Source of the DNA: Candidatus Dojkabacteria bacterium
GTDB lineage: Bacteria > Patescibacteriota > Dojkabacteria > J137
DNA length: 44,728 bases
Direction: 5' to 3'
Assembly: GCA_025993875.1 (NCBI GenBank)
Contig: JAMQHH010000028.1
Span: 1 to 44,728 of the forward strand
Below, in pieces: positions 34,732 through 43,554 of the stretch (positions are counted from its first letter, which is position 1; every line of letters starts with the position of its first letter). Under the pieces are notes generated by a model. The model had not been told where the DNA came from and made no database searches. It was given only the letters and a program-made list of their open reading frames with translations. A program made the translations under genes and the position numbers.

Positions 34732-35100
34732 TCAACCTAGATTTATAAATTCAAAATGTTCAATTACTAAAGGGATTTTGTAAATTATACCCACAAAATC
34801 AACCCTCCATGGCTCTAACAATTTTCCATTGGATACAAGCCATTTATTGATAGTTCTTTTTAAGCTTACCTTTTTTTGATGTGATAGAGATGAATAGATA
34901 TTAAAAGGAGAATTGGGCCTTTGGCTTTTTACCTCTACAAAAACAATAAAATCGTCGGGAGATTTTAAAATTAAATCGATCTCTCCCCCTTTTTGAGTAA
35001 AGTTTCTTTCAAGCTCTAAAAAGCCTTTCTTCAACAAAAAAGATAAAGCTATACTCTCTGCGTTAGTCCCTTTTTGCCTGGTAGATATAATTTTATCCAG
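34732..35100 (-). CDS. yraN: YraN (UPF0102) family PD-(D/E)xK endonuclease-like protein
   Basis: RQKGTNAESIALSFLLKKGF..LERNF...GGEIDLI...VFVEVKS...RVDFVGI. The conserved N-terminus requires a start at CTG 35100 (or ATT/ATA). Confidence 0.85.
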   Translation of the reverse strand: MDKIISTRQKGTNAESIALSFLLKKGFLELERNFTQKGGEIDLILKSPDDFIVFVEVKSQRPNSPFNIYSSLSHQKKVSLKRTINKWLVSNGKLLEPWRVDFVGIIYKIPLVIEHFEFINLG

Positions 35101-35126: not shown

Positions 35127-35594
35127 TTATGCAAACTGGCTAAATGCTTTATTAGCCTCTGCCATTTTGTGAACATCTTCCTTTTTCTTAATTGCCGAAC
35201 CTTCCTTTTTGTAGGCATTGATAATTTCTCTGGAAAGGCTTTCGTAAAACTCAATATTTTTTCTGGAACCTCGTGCTGCCTCTAAAATCCACTTACATGC
35301 AAGGGTAAATTGCCTGTTACCATTTACAGGTACTGGTACCTGAAAATTAGCACCACCTACTCTTTTTGATCTAATCTCCAATTTGGGCTTAATATTTTCC
35401 AAAGCCTTTTCAAAAACTTCGATTCCAGCAACTTTTGTTTTGCGCGAAACATCTTCGAGCATTTTATAAACTATATTTTCTGCTACGGATTTTTTGCCAT
35501 CCTTCATTACATAATTAATGAATTTTGCAAGATCTTCACTTCCGAAAACAGCATCCGGCTTGATTTTTCTTCGTACTGCCTGTTTACCTCTCAT
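35127..35594 (-). CDS. rpsG: 30S ribosomal protein uS7
   Basis: FINYVMKDGKKSVAE, RVGGANFQVP, HKMAEANKAF. Confidence 0.97.
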   Translation of the reverse strand: MRGKQAVRRKIKPDAVFGSEDLAKFINYVMKDGKKSVAENIVYKMLEDVSRKTKVAGIEVFEKALENIKPKLEIRSKRVGGANFQVPVPVNGNRQFTLACKWILEAARGSRKNIEFYESLSREIINAYKKEGSAIKKKEDVHKMAEANKAFSQFA

Positions 35595-35622: not shown

Positions 35623-36081
35623 CTATTTTTTTGCGCCTTCCTTTGGCTTTTTTCTGCCATACCTGCTTCTTGCTTGTCTTCTATTGTCTACCGCTGCAGA
35701 ATCAAAAACCCCTCTGACAACCTGGTATTTTACTCCAGGAAGATCTGGCTTTCTACCAGCTCTAATTAAAACTACAGAGTGCTCCTGAAGGTTATGTCCT
35801 TCGCCTGGAATGTACGCAGTTACAATCTGCTTGTTCGATAAAGAAACTCTAGCAATTTTACGTAAAGCTGAGTTAGGTTTTTTAGGTGTCATAGTTTTAA
35901 CCGCAACACAAACTCCCCTTTTATACGGGTTTTCTGCTTTGTAAAACTTGTTTTTTATACTATTGTAATTAAAGTGTAATGCTTTAAATTTTGTACTTTC
36001 CGAAAAGATTAGCCCCTTAAATCGGGTATTTCCGACTTTAGGTTTTCTTCCTTTTCGTACTAATTGAGAAACTCTTGCCAC
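35623..36081 (-). CDS. rpsL: 30S ribosomal protein uS12
   Basis: [40 protein letters not shown]; GTG start. Confidence 0.97.
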
Positions 36082-36102: not shown

Positions 36103-39100
36103 TTAAACTCTCATAATTTTTTGTATCTCGATATCCGAAATCTCTGCTTTTTCCCCCTCTTCATCTTTTTCTTTGTTTTCGATCTGCTCATCCTCTTCAA
36201 TAAGCCCTAACTTTTTCTTTAGTACCTTTCCTAATGGTACCGGGCGGCCAATTATAACATTTTCTTTAAGTCCTCTCAAATAATCCACTTTACCCATAAT
36301 TGCTGCATCAGTTAAAACTCTTACCTGTTGCTCAAAAGAGGCTGCAGAGAAAAAGCTTTCTGTTCGTATTGAGGAGTTGGTAATCCCCATTAATACTCTT
36401 TCGTATTTAATTGGTTTTTTGTCTGCTTTACCCAAAACTATATTCTCTTTTTCTATGTCCAATACGTCTGCAAAGTCTCCTGCTAAATACTGTTCACTTC
36501 CTCCTGCATCTGTAACCATCCCGTATCTGCCCATTTGTCTGGCAATAATTTCCAGATGCCTATCATCTACTTCAAGACCCTGAATGCTATAAACATCCTG
36601 CACTTCCCTAATAATGTAACTTTGGGCATCTATCATTCCCCTTAGCTTTGCAAGCTCCTTTGGATCACTTGACCCTATTGTTAACTGAGTTCCTTTTTCA
36701 ACTGTATCGCCATCTTTTACCAAGAATACTGTATTGGGTTCTGCCTCTTTCTCTATCTCAATATTTTTTGTTCCAAGAACTGTTAGGTATTTTTCATCTA
36801 ATTGTACTTTCCCATCTACATCACTTTTTAACTCTTTCTTTCCTTTTTTAAATATTGTATCTCCCTGTTGTATTTTATCCCCTTCTTTTACTGCTACAGT
36901 GTATCCGTCTTTTATTTCAAACTTCTTTGCAAACTTCTTTTTTGCTTTTATTCTTACCTTGTATCCTCCGGTTTCTTCGATAATTTCAACTACACCAGGT
37001 TCGTCGGCTAACAATGCTAATGCTTTTGGCGTTCTTGCTTCTAAAAGTTCCTCTACTCTTGGTAAACCCTGTGTAACGTCTGTTTTTACGGCTCTAGCAC
37101 CAGATTTACTTTGTAAAGTAAGCTGTGTTGTAGGCTCGCCAAGTGCCTGTGCTGCAATAATTCCGGCTGCTTCACCGATATCAATAAGCTTTCCTGTCCC
37201 ATTATCGTATCCATAGCACTTGGAGCATACTCCGTGGGCTACACTACACGTTAATGGACTTCTTACTAATACACTGTTTATCTCTTCAATCTTTTCTATT
37301 TGTCTGGCGTTCTCGATTGAGATAGCCTCGCCCTTTTTAACAATAATCTCTCCTGTTTTAGGATTGGATACGTTTTCTTGTGCTATTCTCCCCTTAATTC
37401 TATTGGAGAAAGTTCTTAATCTTTTATCACTTCTTAACACCTTTATTCCGCCTTCTGTTTTACAATCATCTTCTGAAGTAATAATGTCTTGTGCTACATC
37501 TACCAGTCTTCTTGTTAAATAACCCGAATCAGCTGTTCTTAAGGCTACATCGGCGAATCCTTTTCTTGCTCCTCTTGCCGAAACAAAGTATTCGAAATTA
37601 GTAAACCCTTTCTCAAAATTACTCTTTAACGGAAGATCTACGATGTTTCCTGATGGGTCTGTTACATACCCTTGTACTCCCGAGATCTTTTTAACCCATG
37701 CACTTACAGCAATAGCTCCTGAATTTTGCAGATTAACAAGATTATCAGAAGTAGATTTGGCAAGTGCCCAAACATCATCTTGAATTTTGTCGGCATAGTT
37801 TATCCATTCCTCTTTCTTTTTCCACCTCAATTCGTTTGCTGTAATAAAACCCTCGTTATAGTCACTTATAAGCTTTTTTTCCAATTCCTCATACTGTTTT
37901 AGACTTTTCTCTACTATCTCCTTTGCTCCGAATCTAAATTCACTTATAGAAACGGAGAATCCGGATCGTCCTGCATACTTGAACCCCAAATCCTTTATTC
38001 TATCCAGACAATCAATTGCAGTATCTCGGCCATATCTGTTAAAGAGTTCGCCCGAAAGCTGAGTCATATCGGATTTCCCTAGCACCCTATTTATATATTC
38101 GTGCCCTTCGGGAAGCGCCCTATTAAATATTGCTCTACCCGGAGAGGTGATAATAATCTTACCCTCTACAAGAGTTTTTGCAGGCTCGTTAGTTTTTAAA
38201 GTATCTAAATTATATGCTGTTATAAGTTCCTCTGGTGAAGAGTAAACTCTCGATCCAGCTTCTAAACTCGCAGGAATGTTTGTTAAAAGATACAAACCCA
38301 TAGCCATGTCTTTTTCTACTCTTACAATTGGTACACCATCTCTAAGGTTGAGCATGTTATGTTTTGCCATCATTTTTTCTTTTACCTCTTCTACTGCTGC
38401 ATCCGAAAGTGGTAAGTGAACAGCCATCTGGTCTCCGTCAAAGTCTGCATTAAATCCGGTACATACCATTGGATGTAGTCTTATAGCATTACCTTCAATA
38501 AGAACAGGGAAGAAGGCCAAAATACTTTGTTTATGAAGAGTTGGAGCTCTGTTTAGTAAAACCGGTCTATCGTGGCTTACTTCCTCCAAAATATCCCATA
38601 CCTCATCGGTTCGCAACTCAAAGATTACCTTTGCTTTTGCTGGGTTGGCTGCAATTCCCCTACCGATAAGTTCCCTGATAATAAATGGTTTAAAAAGTTC
38701 CAAAGCAATATTTTTGGGAATACCGCATTGGTGAAATTTTAGTTCTGGTCCGGGAACAATTACTGCGCTTCCCGAGTAGTCTACCCTTTTACCCAAAAGA
38801 TTTTGTCTAAATCTTCCCTGTTTACCCCTTAACATATCTGACAGAGATTTAAACGGCATCTGTCTGGAATTTAACGATGGTGCTCCGGGTTTATGGTTGT
38901 TATCTAAAAGAGAATCTACAGATTCCTGTAACATTCTTTTTTCGTTTCTCAATATAATCTCAGGGGCTCCTAATGCGATAAGTCTTTTAAGCCTGTTATT
39001 TCTGTTAATTACTCTTCTATACAGATCGTTTAGATCGTATGTTGCAAAACGTCCTCCAGGTAATTGAACAATTGGTCTTAAATCCGGCGGAATTACGGGT

Positions 39101-40068
39101 AGAACTTCCATTACCATCCACGATGGGTTTACTCCCGATTTCTTTAGCCCTTTTAGTAATCGTAATCTCTGAATTAATTTTGCTTTTCTAAGATCCGATT
39201 TTGTAGAAGCCAGTTCTTTTTCCATTAATTCAATCTCTTTATCGATCTCAATCTTACTTAATAGATCTCTAATAGCTTCGGAACCCATATCTGCTTTAAA
39301 AAAGTAAAAGCTGTAGGAGTCTAATAACTGAAACTCCTCCTCCGAAAGAGTGGTACCTAGCGTTATGTTTTGGATTAAAGCTTTTAGATCTACAAATTTT
39401 TTCTCGATATTCTCCTCTTTTTGCTTGTATGCAGATTTTATTCGGGCAATCTCCTGCTTTTCGTTGTTTAAAATTCTTTCGACCTGCAAGCCTACTTTCT
39501 CTTTTTCCTTAGATCCTTTTTTTATTAGTTTCACCTCTTTCTCGAACCTTTCGGACACCTCTTTAATTTTTTCCTGCATCTCAGATTCTATCTCCTTTAG
39601 CTCGTTTTCCTGTACAGAAACTAATGCATTTAGCACTTTCTCCCTTTCCTCTTCGTTTATCTCTGTTACTGCGTATCGGGCATAATAAATTACTGTTTCA
39701 AGTTTCTTTTGCGGAATTCCAAGTATCATTGCCAGTTTGTTTGGTATACCGTTAGAAAACCACACATGGGTAACCGGTGATGCAAGTTTTATATGTCCCA
39801 TTCTCTCTCTTCTTACTCTTTTGTGAGTAATCTCTACTCCGCATCTGTCGCAAATAATTCCCTTGTATCTTACCTTTTTGTATTTTCCACAGTAACACTC
39901 AAAGTCTTTGGAAGGACCAAAAATCTCCTCGGCCATTAACCCCCCGGGCTCTGGTTTAAATGTTCGGTAGTTTATTGTTTCGGCTTTTGTAACCTCTCCT
40001 CTTGACCAGTTTAAAATATCTTCCGGCGAAGCTATTGAGATTCTTACCGCATTAAAATCTTTAAGCAT
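36103..40068 (-). CDS. rpoC: RNA polymerase beta' subunit
   Basis: ETINYRT, Zn finger CYCGKYK/CDRCG, LLGKRVDYSG, NADFDGDQM, SGYLTRRL, GLPRV, ASFE, LKENVIIG. Confidence 0.98.
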   Translation of the reverse strand: MLKDFNAVRISIASPEDILNWSRGEVTKAETINYRTFKPEPGGLMAEEIFGPSKDFECYCGKYKKVRYKGIICDRCGVEITHKRVRRERMGHIKLASPVTHVWFSNGIPNKLAMILGIPQKKLETVIYYARYAVTEINEEEREKVLNALVSVQENELKEIESEMQEKIKEVSERFEKEVKLIKKGSKEKEKVGLQVERILNNEKQEIARIKSAYKQKEENIEKKFVDLKALIQNITLGTTLSEEEFQLLDSYSFYFFKADMGSEAIRDLLSKIEIDKEIELMEKELASTKSDLRKAKLIQRLRLLKGLKKSGVNPSWMVMEVLPVIPPDLRPIVQLPGGRFATYDLNDLYRRVINRNNRLKRLIALGAPEIILRNEKRMLQESVDSLLDNNHKPGAPSLNSRQMPFKSLSDMLRGKQGRFRQNLLGKRVDYSGSAVIVPGPELKFHQCGIPKNIALELFKPFIIRELIGRGIAANPAKAKVIFELRTDEVWDILEEVSHDRPVLLNRAPTLHKQSILAFFPVLIEGNAIRLHPMVCTGFNADFDGDQMAVHLPLSDAAVEEVKEKMMAKHNMLNLRDGVPIVRVEKDMAMGLYLLTNIPASLEAGSRVYSSPEELITAYNLDTLKTNEPAKTLVEGKIIITSPGRAIFNRALPEGHEYINRVLGKSDMTQLSGELFNRYGRDTAIDCLDRIKDLGFKYAGRSGFSVSISEFRFGAKEIVEKSLKQYEELEKKLISDYNEGFITANELRWKKKEEWINYADKIQDDVWALAKSTSDNLVNLQNSGAIAVSAWVKKISGVQGYVTDPSGNIVDLPLKSNFEKGFTNFEYFVSARGARKGFADVALRTADSGYLTRRLVDVAQDIITSEDDCKTEGGIKVLRSDKRLRTFSNRIKGRIAQENVSNPKTGEIIVKKGEAISIENARQIEKIEEINSVLVRSPLTCSVAHGVCSKCYGYDNGTGKLIDIGEAAGIIAAQALGEPTTQLTLQSKSGARAVKTDVTQGLPRVEELLEARTPKALALLADEPGVVEIIEETGGYKVRIKAKKKFAKKFEIKDGYTVAVKEGDKIQQGDTIFKKGKKELKSDVDGKVQLDEKYLTVLGTKNIEIEKEAEPNTVFLVKDGDTVEKGTQLTIGSSDPKELAKLRGMIDAQSYIIREVQDVYSIQGLEVDDRHLEIIARQMGRYGMVTDAGGSEQYLAGDFADVLDIEKENIVLGKADKKPIKYERVLMGITNSSIRTESFFSAASFEQQVRVLTDAAIMGKVDYLRGLKENVIIGRPVPLGKVLKKKLGLIEEDEQIENKEKDEEGEKAEISDIEIQKIMRV

Positions 40069-40104: not shown

Positions 40105-43100
40105 TTAATTTATTGTAAAATTTTCCAGCTCCTCTTTATTTTCCGCTATAGTTTGATCGGTAGCGCCGACAGAATCGACTATCTCCTCTAAGGCCATATC
40201 ACCTCGTTGAGTATCGAGCTGTGCACCTATTTTGTCTAATTTAATACTTAAACCGGCAAGCTCTTTATCTAATACATTAAACGATTCCGGAATATTTGGA
40301 GCTGTAATTTTATTACCTGTAATTATGGCTTTATATGCAGCTGCTCTTCCTACCACATCGTCTGATTTAATTGTTAACATTTCGTGCAGCACCGATGGTA
40401 CGCCATGTGCTTCTAATGCCCAAACCTCCATTTCTCCAAATCTTCTACCTCCACGCTGTGCTTTTCCTCTAAGAGGTTGCTGAGTTACCAGTGTATATGG
40501 GCCGGTGGATCTTGCATGTACCTTATTATCGGCCAAGTGATCCAGTTTTAGAAAATATTTTGTTCCAACGGCAACTTTGTTTGGAAACTTTTTGCCTGTT
40601 CTTCCATCATAAAGGTCAATTTTTTCCTCGATAGAAACACCTTCTTTTTTGGCAAGATCTAGTACAGGGTCAATTGAATAATCTCCAAATGGTTGAACTT
40701 CGGCTTTTACACCTAATTTTCGACATATATTTCCAACATGCGCTTCGATAAGTTGCCCTACATTCATTCTTTTAATCATTCCAGTCGGATTTAATAACAC
40801 ATCTACCCTTGTACCTTCTTTGGTAAATGGCATATCCTCTTCGGGTACTATTTTGGTAATTACACCTTTTTCTCCATGAAATCCTGTTAGTTTATCTCCA
40901 ACCGAAATTTTATGTGTTTTGGCGACCCATACCTTTACCTGCTTTATAACTCCAGAGTTAAGTTTTGCTCCAGAATTTTTATCTAAAACCTGTGTGCCGA
41001 TAACAACTCCTTTATCTCCATAGGGCATTCTTAAAGAATTATCTCTTACATCCCTGGAGTATTCGCCGAAGATAGCTCTAAGTAGTTTTTCTTCTGCGGT
41101 AGGCTCGGATTCTCCTTTTGGAGCAATTATTCCTACCAATATATCGCTCGAATCTACACTTGCTCCAATTCTTACTATTCCCGATTCATCAAGATTTCTT
41201 AGGGCATATTCACCGACTCCCGGTATATCTCTGGTTACTTGTTCTGGCCCTAGTTTCGTTTCTCTAATTTCTTGAATGTATTCTTGTATGTGTACAGATG
41301 TAAGCCTGTCCTCTTTTACGACTTTCTCTGAAATAATAATTCCATCTTCAAAATTATAACCGTCAAATACCAAATATGCAGTTACAAGGTTAACTCCTAA
41401 TGCTAGTTCTCCGTTTTGAGTGGAAGGTCCGTCTGCTAAAACGTCTCCAGCTTTAACAGTACTGCCCTGCATTACAATTGGGGACTGGCTAAAGCAGGAA
41501 TTTTGGTTGGTTCTTGTAAATTTCTCTATAAAGTAGCTTTTCTTTCCTAGTTCCTTATCTTTATAGTCAACAACAATTTTTCGGGCATCCACATATATTA
41601 CTCTACCTTCTCCTTCGGCATAAACAACTCTTCCTGTCGCCTTGGCTGCATCTTTTTCGTAACCTGTACCTACAATTGGAGATTCAGGATTAATTAGCGG
41701 GATTGCCTGATTTTGCATTTTCGATCCCATTAATGTTTTAATGGAGTCGTCGTTTGCTCCAAAAGGAATTAATGCTAGTCCAAGCCCTGCAATCTGAGAA
41801 GGAATTATATCGATAAGGTCAATTTCGTGCACATTAACCTTGGTATATCTTTGCCCGTCTCTTACGTATGTACTTTCCTCTAAGATATTTTTATCGTTAT
41901 CTACATTTATATTAATACTTGCAATTTTATGTTCAAGTTCTATATCTGCATCTATGTAAATAACTTCATCGGTTATGAATGGGACCAACTTAAACTCTTT
42001 TGCTTCAATATCATCGATTTTTTCTACCATCGATGTTGTTAGTTTTTCTCCTTTTTTTATAAGCACTTTGCCTTTAGAATTTGTTAAGTCCTCCTCCATG
42101 ATACGGCCAACAAGCTCTTTTTTCTTCTCTGTTTTACCGTTAAATTTGTTTTTTACAACATAGTAAGGTGCTTCCAAAAATCCATACTCATTTATTCTGG
42201 AATATATTGCCAATTGATTTACCATACCAATTGATGGTCCTTCGGGAGTTGTTACAGGGCAAAGTCTGGAGTAGTGGGAGTTGTGTACATCTCTTACAGA
42301 GAATGTAGCCCTCTCTTTAGTTAATCCTCTTGGACCTCCTGCTGAGATTTTTCTTTTGGCCTCCAGCTCGCTAAATGGATTCTCTTGATCCATAAATCTT
42401 ACTTGCGCACTGCTCCCAAAAAACTGATTAACTGCCGTTACTATTGGTCTTGTATTAATGAGCATTGCCGGAGTTACTTTCTCTTCTACGGAATAAGTAC
42501 TCATCTTGTCGCGGATATTTTTCTCCATTGAAAGTAGCCCACCTCGTAGTTTTTCTGTTAAAAGCTCGTTTACCCCTCTAATTCTCCTATTGCTTAAACT
42601 ATCAATGTCGTCGGGCTCCCGTTGACCGTTATTAAGTTCAATTAAGGTTTTTATAACTTCCACAATATCTCGCTTTTTAAGAGTGTAATCGGATATTGAG
42701 ATATCCTCCTTAATTCCTAGTTTTTTGTTTAATTTGTATCTTCCGATTTTTCCTAAGTAAAATCTCCTTTTATTAAAGAAAATATTATGAATAAGCGCTT
42801 TGGCATTCTCAAGGGTTACTGTATCTTCCGGTCTTAGTTTTCTATAGATATCTATTAAGGCTTCCTCCGTATTTTTTGTAGGATCCTTTTTTAATGTAGT
42901 TTCGAGAATACTCGTTTCTCCTTTATCAACTCCCCCAAAAACTCTCAATATGTCTTCATTGGATGAGTATCCGAGTGCTCTTATTAATGTTGTTAAGATT
43001 ATTCGGGGCCTTTTTTGTAAAAGCTTTATACTCATTACTCCGTATTTATTCATTTCGAATTCATACCAGTTTCCTCTATGAGGCATTAGTTTTACCGAAT

Positions 43101-43554
43101 AAATTTTTTTCTTTGGAGTGGAGTTTTTGCTTTCTCCAAATAAAAGTCCTTCAGATCTTAGTATTTGAAAAACAACAACTCTTTCGTTCCCGTTAACAAT
43201 AAAAGAAGCTCTATCTGTCATCAAAGGAACGTCTGTAAGGTAGATTTTTTGCTTTTTTATCTCACCACTTTTTTTGTTGAGAAGCCTTACATTTACATGA
43301 ACAGGTACTTCGTAGGTTAAGCCAAGTTTTTGAGCTTCCAAAAAGCTTATTTTGGATTTTCCCCACTCTACTTCCTGAAACTCAAGCTCCCAGGAATTCC
43401 CGTTATAGTCTAAAACAGGGTTTATTTCGTCAAAAATCTCCTCAAAACCGTCTTCAACAAAGTTTCGAAAAAATTTCTTTTGCGCCTCTAAAAAATCAAC
43501 ATCCTGGTGCGGAATAGGATTTTTGGTTAGCATTATCCTTTTATTTGCTGGCAT
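40105..43554 (-). CDS. rpoB: RNA polymerase beta subunit
   Basis: NGNERVVV, FMDQ.NP, RDVH, TPEGP, GYNFED, GDKL, HARSTGPY, RFGEMEVWALEA, PESF. Confidence 0.98.
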   Translation of the reverse strand: MPANKRIMLTKNPIPHQDVDFLEAQKKFFRNFVEDGFEEIFDEINPVLDYNGNSWELEFQEVEWGKSKISFLEAQKLGLTYEVPVHVNVRLLNKKSGEIKKQKIYLTDVPLMTDRASFIVNGNERVVVFQILRSEGLLFGESKNSTPKKKIYSVKLMPHRGNWYEFEMNKYGVMSIKLLQKRPRIILTTLIRALGYSSNEDILRVFGGVDKGETSILETTLKKDPTKNTEEALIDIYRKLRPEDTVTLENAKALIHNIFFNKRRFYLGKIGRYKLNKKLGIKEDISISDYTLKKRDIVEVIKTLIELNNGQREPDDIDSLSNRRIRGVNELLTEKLRGGLLSMEKNIRDKMSTYSVEEKVTPAMLINTRPIVTAVNQFFGSSAQVRFMDQENPFSELEAKRKISAGGPRGLTKERATFSVRDVHNSHYSRLCPVTTPEGPSIGMVNQLAIYSRINEYGFLEAPYYVVKNKFNGKTEKKKELVGRIMEEDLTNSKGKVLIKKGEKLTTSMVEKIDDIEAKEFKLVPFITDEVIYIDADIELEHKIASININVDNDKNILEESTYVRDGQRYTKVNVHEIDLIDIIPSQIAGLGLALIPFGANDDSIKTLMGSKMQNQAIPLINPESPIVGTGYEKDAAKATGRVVYAEGEGRVIYVDARKIVVDYKDKELGKKSYFIEKFTRTNQNSCFSQSPIVMQGSTVKAGDVLADGPSTQNGELALGVNLVTAYLVFDGYNFEDGIIISEKVVKEDRLTSVHIQEYIQEIRETKLGPEQVTRDIPGVGEYALRNLDESGIVRIGASVDSSDILVGIIAPKGESEPTAEEKLLRAIFGEYSRDVRDNSLRMPYGDKGVVIGTQVLDKNSGAKLNSGVIKQVKVWVAKTHKISVGDKLTGFHGEKGVITKIVPEEDMPFTKEGTRVDVLLNPTGMIKRMNVGQLIEAHVGNICRKLGVKAEVQPFGDYSIDPVLDLAKKEGVSIEEKIDLYDGRTGKKFPNKVAVGTKYFLKLDHLADNKVHARSTGPYTLVTQQPLRGKAQRGGRRFGEMEVWALEAHGVPSVLHEMLTIKSDDVVGRAAAYKAIITGNKITAPNIPESFNVLDKELAGLSIKLDKIGAQLDTQRGDMALEEIVDSVGATDQTIAENKEELENFTIN

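Follow-up and report, generated by a model that had tools for sequence, protein, structure and literature searches.

The window analysed here, positions 1 to 44,728 of the forward strand of contig JAMQHH010000028.1 from a Candidatus Dojkabacteria genome (assembly GCA_025993875.1), carries rpoC, the gene for the beta′ subunit of RNA polymerase (RNAP), and the trigger loop (TL) of the encoded protein contains no histidine. This His-less enzyme is the single housekeeping polymerase of a genome of ~0.93 Mb from the Patescibacteria, or candidate phyla radiation (CPR). Whether the TL histidine acts as a general acid or as a positional catalyst has been debated for more than ten years. Excerpts of recent papers call it universally conserved in cellular multisubunit RNAPs (2026, PMC13198411; 2024, PMC11343019) and call its RNA polymerase II (Pol II) counterpart, H1085, ultra-conserved (2025, PMC12391331). 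This "universal" histidine is not universal. We regard it as close to certain that the polymerase is the cell's only one, that its TL is fixed in the lineage and under selection, that the motif had a single, stepwise origin, and that its surroundings were remodelled; for the whole statement, a lineage-fixed and selected His-less TL working by a compensated mechanism, we would claim slightly better than an even chance.

The rpoC gene occupies positions 36103–40068 on the minus strand, as do all window features given below. It is an open reading frame (ORF) of 1321 aa with Pfam Rpb1 domains 1, 2, 3 and 5 (PF04997, PF00623, PF04983 and PF04998, all above cut-offs), and its product shows full-length homology to more than 100 solved beta′ chains at E = 0. 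The TL, GEPTTQLTLQSKSGARAVKTDVTQGLPRV, spans residues 977–1005 (37054–37140). The initial annotation had recognised the loop correctly and placed it at 37081–37140, an interval that holds only the first 20 of its 29 residues. Translation, HMMER and MAFFT all agree with its reading of LQSKS for MRTFH: in the HMMER alignment to the solved chain 7l7b_D, LQSKS lies opposite MRTFH without gaps, and MAFFT alignment with RpoC of Escherichia coli K-12, whose numbering we use for individual residues, reproduces the six substitutions originally proposed (G927T, M932L, R933Q, T934S, F935K and H936S). The remodelled core, LQSKSGARA (37090–37116; clade consensus LKSKSDARA), corresponds in the MAFFT alignment to E. 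coli 932–940, with Ser in place of H936 and Arg in place of G939. Against Thermus aquaticus chains, the TL aligns with a one-residue gap, and K then lies opposite H. We favour the ungapped alignment because relatives in the same class with a canonical LRTFH have a loop of equal length; no His is present anywhere in the TL whichever alignment is taken.

The residues of the core chemistry are retained. Both the TL flanks (GEPxTQLT and DVTQGLPRV), whose hinges are conserved, and the bridge helix can be aligned with solved chains. The NADFDGD motif is intact, as initially reported (residues 540–546; 38431–38451), and this triad, R425 and N458 are present both here (protein P0001) and in all 74 sequences of the His-less clade described below; Q929 and T790 are also intact in this RpoC. 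Rpb1 domain 4 (PF05000) had no Pfam match in this RpoC or in Dojkabacteria-type homologs, which fits a divergent funnel/F-loop region (residues ~710–820). PF05000 is listed for canonical, Chloroflexi-like RpoC homologs.

Such a loop could be mimicked by an error of assembly, by frameshifts that compensate each other, by a pseudogene or by a specialised second polymerase, an explanation that we rate as extremely improbable. We found no support for it, the sole caveat being that the source genome (929,965 bases in 40 contigs, with 2.78% contamination) is a draft at 96.01% completeness. A protein search of this genome returned one rpoC match and no second copy. For the 801 bases around the TL (window 36700–37500), 16 public runs (sludge, bioreactor and wastewater) contain 100% of the words sampled, and Logan contigs from four runs in three studies (two metatranscriptome libraries and two DNA, some of which may be the source sample) span the same stretch with 0 substitutions and 0 indels. 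P0003, a 96%-identical homolog from another assembly, has an identical TL. The 1321-aa ORF is intact, the motif is under strong purifying selection (see below) and it also occurs in other species-level genomes, closed single-contig ones such as G001, G005 and G009 among them; rpoC is present in all of 40 relatives, with one match each except in G028, which has two on separate contigs. The initial annotation had named an artefact and a second rpoC as ways in which it could prove wrong, and neither is borne out; its view of this gene as encoding the primary polymerase agrees with the single rpoC in a canonical operon context, where Pfam identifies all neighbours in the order rpoB-rpoC-rpsL-rpsG.

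The loop belongs to a lineage rather than to one genome. A search of 5.8 billion proteins yielded 120 classified homologs: 74 His-less, 19 intermediate (His kept, F935 replaced by K or R, and R933 mostly lost) and 27 canonical, with one further homolog (P0108) unparsed. Several of the close homologs bear the NCBI name Candidatus Dojkabacteria. All 74 His-less sequences have Ser at the His position, and together with the absence of any TL His and the sole rpoC this makes the enzyme the natural His-less RNAP that had been suggested from the letters of this stretch. At the level of genomes, the order comprises families f1 and f2 (n = 30, including the source): 29 read LKSKS, LKNKS or LQSKS, none with His, and the remaining one (G006) has its TL site masked by N. 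The concern that relatives might all carry MRTFH is thus answered by 29 of 29 readable genomes, and the motif is lineage-fixed. His is kept in 11 of the 11 other genomes of the class first sampled, which form a series of LRTFH, MQTFH, LDTFH, LDSKH/IDSKH/LNSKH and LHAKH/LNTKH.

A codon pattern for the clade motif, applied to the 221 species genomes of the class, matched 26 of 27 in f1 (the one missed being the masked genome), 5 of 5 in f2 and 1 of 189 elsewhere. That one outside match, which reads TQFTLKTK, lies in G071 (contig C51, 2686–2711), from family f3, whose TLs are otherwise canonical, and does not fall in a recognisable rpoC. We treated it as probably chance or an unassembled gene: a 201-aa TL-region protein query gave no rpoC-like match in this genome, which is 89% complete. 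In the genome search, the rpoC matches of G035, G032, G037 and G002 contain 1–3 in-frame TAG or TAA codons, of which direct extraction showed one, in G035 only; spill-over of the alignment, sequencing errors and recoding are all possible causes.

To place the change we used a FastTree phylogeny of concatenated RpoB and RpoC (41 rows, rooted on E. coli) from which the columns of the TL, F-loop, bridge helix, fork loop 2 and link had been removed; G006 was scored as His-less despite its mask, and G020 was left out as its RpoC is partial. All 29 His-less rows group in one clade (support 100, stem branch length 0.22), so that a single change suffices. This clade nests within the LHAKH/LNTKH genomes, then within LDSKH/IDSKH, then LDTFH/LNSKH, and finally LRTFH. 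The His-less motif has a single origin at the base of one order, reached by loss of R933, then F935K, then H936S together with G938A and G939R.

Conservation was assessed in the 74 His-less sequences, which are 55–96% identical to P0001. L932, S936, A938 and R939 are each found in 74 of 74 and K935 in 73; position 933 is Lys in 68 and Gln in six, this genome among them, and D937 is present in 68 and replaced by Gly here. Mean column conservation is 0.91 for the TL vs 0.72 for the whole protein, and the TL falls in the top 11% of 29-residue windows. In a codon analysis of 26 of the 30 loci (one masked locus and three with a tip one residue shorter were excluded), every codon of the TL motif varies synonymously, and both Ser positions switch between TCN and AGY; S936 is encoded by TCT, TCA, TCC, TCG or AGT, and R939 by AGA, CGA, CGT or CGC. 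A motif that is more conserved than the protein average despite such synonymous change is being maintained rather than decaying. The motif L-[K/Q]-S-K-S-[D/G]-A-R-A, which replaces M/L-R-T-F-H-x-G-G, is under purifying selection.

The TL did not change alone. We set the 74 His-less beta′ sequences against 26 canonical ones, that of E. coli among them. In 72 columns, a residue shared by at least 90% of the canonical set is retained by at most 10% of the His-less clade; TL columns 927 and 933–940 are among these. In the F-loop, the R731 position has become P, S or A, L746 is Y or F, and Q736W, M743V and M747V occur in 67, 70 and 68 of the 74; in this genome the region (residues 785–815; 37624–37716) has lost the basic residue at 731, carries Q736W, M743V and M747V, and has Gln at R744. 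The bridge helix shows T776A/S, H777R/K, L783F/M/Y and T786V across the clade, and T776A, H777R, L783F and T786V with T790 kept in this protein (residues 825–860; 37489–37596). What sets the His-less proteins apart from the His-keeping intermediates is L783F, T786V, T934S, G939R, Q435L, S353A and the replacement of K395 by A, T or S. We considered L783F plus T786V as a general correlate of His loss and rejected it, since family f18, in which His has become Tyr, keeps L and T.

The beta subunit has changed in parallel. Its gene, rpoB, lies at 40105–43554 and encodes 1149 aa (ORF and Pfam), and its product was compared across 26 His-less and 11 His-bearing genomes after four with fragments only had been dropped. 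G536 is replaced by R or K in 26 of 26 His-less vs 2 of 11 His-bearing genomes, and N684 by K or R in 26 of 26 vs none of 11; the residue at 687 is basic in 10 of the 11 and in none of the 26, and M685T is found in 24 of the 26. Invariant across the compared genomes are K1065, K1073, R1106, H1237, E813 and D814. The Arg at the G536 position of this genome lies in the fork loop 2 region (42295–42345), and the segment equivalent to 672–690 (41701–41757) shows N684K, Asn at 687 and R678K. Among the beta residues that contact the nucleoside triphosphate (NTP), K1073 and R1106 are kept. R678 (rpoB residue 606, window 41737–41739), described as universally conserved and as a contact to the NTP gamma-phosphate, is Lys here, the sole case among the 26 His-less genomes, and its neighbour N677 is Ile.

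These positions have known structural roles, which we take from excerpts of the papers cited. The closed TL of the E. coli Michaelis complex meets the NTP only through stacking by M932 and a hydrogen bond from H936 to the beta-phosphate, T786 contacts the base, and R731 and beta R1106 hold the leaving pyrophosphate (PMC13198411). The TL/F-loop interface is made of Q736, Q739, L746, M747, A748, G938, G939 and a water on R744 (PMC13198411), while R744, M747 and the N-terminal bridge helix pack against beta 675–678 (PMC6347699), a module named the bridge-helix cap (PMC4029172). The co-changes thus coincide with residues assigned from structures to TL–NTP or TL/F-loop contacts (H936, G938, G939, R744, M747, L746, Q736, T786 and R731). 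The F-loop, the N-terminal bridge helix, fork loop 2 and beta 684–687 were remodelled alongside the TL.

Set beside canonical RNAPs (E. coli, Thermus and Clostridioides difficile), the enzyme is alike in its full-length beta′ homology, in NADFDGD, R425, N458, Q929 and T790, in the TL hinges (GEP..TQLT and TQGLPRV), in beta K1073 and R1106 and in operon position. It differs in the TL (H936S, F935K, G938A, G939R, and R933Q, with K in the clade), in the F-loop and bridge-helix changes given above, in beta (G536R, N684K, R678K and the lost R687) and in its unmatched Rpb1 domain 4.

How such an active site would work can be proposed from the positions of these residues. By alignment, the enzyme appears to keep the TL hinges, the L932 stacking residue, and the Mg-binding and beta-side phosphate-contact residues, with the His contact residue gone. 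Several new basic residues have been fixed nearby, while three that were there before have gone (TL R933 in this genus, beta′ R731 and beta R687). We suggest that the TL continues to close over the NTP and works as a positional catalyst, with L932 maintaining base stacking and long basic side chains (R939 and/or K935, K933) replacing the hydrogen bond from His to the beta-phosphate. R939 would lie a turn of the helix above S936, whose side chain is small; beta K684 and beta R536 might assist the phosphate contact, and the change of the Gly-Gly tip to Ala-Arg would probably stiffen the first trigger helix. We hold this mechanism, in which the TL closes and a basic side chain positions the phosphate, tentatively and at somewhat less than even confidence. 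The initial annotation had proposed K935 as the source of positive charge, which is plausible; R939 (74 of 74), K933 (68 of 74, with Gln here) and the two new basic residues of beta would be equally good candidates.

Several observations weigh against the compensated mechanism, or at least against its details. Sister lineages with an intact His already have K935; since K935 predates the loss of His, it cannot be a specific replacement for it. Which residue would contact the phosphate, if any does, is deduced from sequence position alone. An AlphaFold2 model of residues 690–1110, built from a 43-row clade alignment, reached a mean predicted local distance difference test score (pLDDT) of 72.5, with values below 50 for the bridge helix (segment 146–172) and the TL (280–324), and is uninformative for side chains and helices there. 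R744 has not been lost uniformly in the clade (R in 25, K in 10, Q in 12 and another residue in 27 of the 74; Q here). In this genome, K933 to Q, D937 to G and beta R678K indicate a genus that has drifted further from the clade motif. The metatranscriptome contigs over the TL stretch do not prove transcription.

Other Patescibacteria bear on the same question. Of the 221 genomes of the class, 185 gave a match to a TL pattern anchored on the flanks, and TLs were read by eye among the matches listed. In family f7 (~100 genomes of 0.5–0.9 Mb), nearly all matches listed read MQTFH, with R933 changed to Gln and His kept. G114 reads MRTFQ; both genomes examined in family f18 read LRTFY, and both in family f19 read LRTFH. 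In an even sample of 401 genomes across the phylum, at least 14 encode another residue where the TL His would stand: two Ser, one Lys (MRTFK), three Asn (MRTVN, all in one family), three Arg (MDSKR, MDAKR and LHGKR), one Ile (MKSKI) and four Gln. These phylum counts are lower bounds, as the pattern requires the flanks and does not cover CTY, CCY or CGY codons, and loci are counted whether or not they are the sole rpoC. The Gln forms seen among Patescibacteria are MRTFQ and MKTFQ, and the Tyr form is LRTFY. Genomes of other families with non-His TLs are G095 and G100 (loci L084 and L085), G114, G303, G469, G568, G532, G519, G412, G440, G482, G556, G246, G343 and G377. Judged by these sequences, His has been replaced repeatedly and independently in other families of the phylum. 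With more hesitation than for the mechanism itself, we put forward the combined proposal that one order re-engineered its phosphate clamp, with TL K933, K935 and R939 plus beta K684 and R536 replacing TL R933, H936 and beta′ R731, while His was replaced many times independently across Patescibacteria (by S, Y, Q, K, N, R and I).

The same pattern can be read as an uncompensated loss like that of plant RNA polymerase IV (Pol IV). On this account the TL stays off the NTP phosphates, the enzyme is slower and has lower NTP affinity, the accompanying changes are drift or structural accommodation, and a slow-growing, probably host-dependent CPR cell tolerates the result. Pol IV makes this the main rival, and a serious one, by analogy, since according to the available part of its description it has Ser and no TL–NTP contact, binds NTP with ~6-fold lower affinity and incorporates it 7-fold less efficiently (PMC11343019). 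The repeated swaps of His for chemically unrelated residues (Y, Q, K, N, R and I) and the loss of R933 in many families of the class, such as the ~100 MQTFH genomes of f7, suggest that constraint on NTP-contacting TL residues is relaxed in the phylum. Excerpts of the experimental literature add that E. coli H936Q has only minor effects (PMC13198411) and that yeast H1085L is well tolerated (PMC12391331). Simple decay, however, would not hold a motif above the protein average in conservation through many synonymous changes, nor does this account sit easily with new basic residues fixed near the active site (R939 in 74 of 74, beta 684 and 536 in 26 of 26) or with intact TL hinges and hydrophobic positions. 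On balance we consider uncompensated loss unlikely, though not by much more than we doubt the combined proposal above.

A third account, compatible with either compensated or uncompensated loss, is that the TL, F-loop, bridge-helix cap and fork loop 2 were reshaped by selection for escape from a natural inhibitor (a lasso peptide, or one of the salinamide or streptolydigin type), with His loss as a by-product. The changed positions do overlap inhibitor contacts given in excerpts of two papers: microcin J25 (MccJ25) touches beta′ R744, M747, S775, G778 and A779 and beta D675, N677 and R678 (PMC6347699), and beta′ R738, A779 and G782 and beta D675 and N677 are among the residues of the salinamide target (PMC4029172). 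This genome has beta′ R744Q, M747V and R738K and beta N677I and R678K. Such overlap is circumstantial, in that any change near the active site will overlap some inhibitor site; such inhibitors are not known from the habitat, and H936S itself would go unexplained. We regard this account as quite improbable.

Transcript cleavage is a further function to which the TL might contribute. GreA is present in 41 of 41 genomes, so that cleavage and proofreading need not depend on the TL, and under the compensated mechanism they would be expected to rely on the retained GreA. This genome has two copies (GreA-family matches on contig C37, 8264–8485, and contig C38, 63020–63250). One is a protein of 168 aa with a GDLSEN tip, which we take to be the canonical acidic Gre tip; the tip of the second, of 149 aa, is altered to GDLYREN, and this protein could be a Gfh-like regulator. 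The idea that this second paralog supplies the missing residue in trans was rejected as a general explanation: 17 of the 30 genomes of the same order show one Gre match only. Gre copy number shows no evident difference between His-less and His-bearing genomes (1–4 vs 1–5 matches).

Three known systems invite comparison. Plant Pol IV resembles the Dojkabacteria enzyme in having Ser898 at the TL His position and in lacking other NTP-contacting TL residues, as far as the available text describes it (PMC11343019). Pol IV is a specialised extra polymerase beside Pol II, whereas the Dojkabacteria enzyme is the cell's only RNAP and its TL, unlike that of Pol IV, is strongly conserved and rich in Lys and Arg; the two losses are independent events without common descent. 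The RNAP of Nanoarchaeum equitans and other DPANN archaea is likewise the sole enzyme of a reduced-genome, symbiont-type lineage, and the available part of PMC8204694 reports non-conservative changes in its bridge helix, TL and fork loop that are common to many environmental relatives. That enzyme is archaeal, with a bridge-helix Pro, fork loop 3 and metal-B changes, and this part of the paper says nothing of a lost TL His; a count of "histidine" in the text gives 0. The engineered variants E. coli H936Q and yeast Rpb1 H1085L and H1085Y have natural Q and Y counterparts in other CPR families; they are single laboratory swaps in a canonical enzyme, whereas here Ser is order-wide and set in a co-evolved background. 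A full-text literature search, with hits judged by title and the start of the abstract, returned no description of a natural bacterial His-less TL, and supplementary alignments may hold such variants.

Downstream of rpoC, the operon continues directly with rpsL (ribosomal protein S12; 35623–36081, PF00164) and then rpsG (ribosomal protein S7; 35127–35594, PF00177). A UPF0102 (YraN-like) gene lies just beyond rpsG at 34732–35037.

A His-less TL in so well known a machine should be of high interest to the transcription field, with the mechanism offered as a candidate. An order whose sole RNAP lacks the histidine is natural evidence that His is dispensable in the right background. The intermediates (LRTFH, LDTFH, LDSKH, LNTKH and LKSKS) lay out an evolutionary path open to biochemical reconstruction, and with it the epistasis between the TL, F-loop, bridge helix and beta. 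If our interpretation is correct, the natural variants of Patescibacteria would form a ready series on the positional-catalyst model and on epistasis between the TL and the bridge-helix cap. Such RNAPs are likely to be insensitive to inhibitors of the TL and the bridge-helix cap, and the finding bears on the trade-off between transcription speed and fidelity in reduced-genome CPR bacteria.

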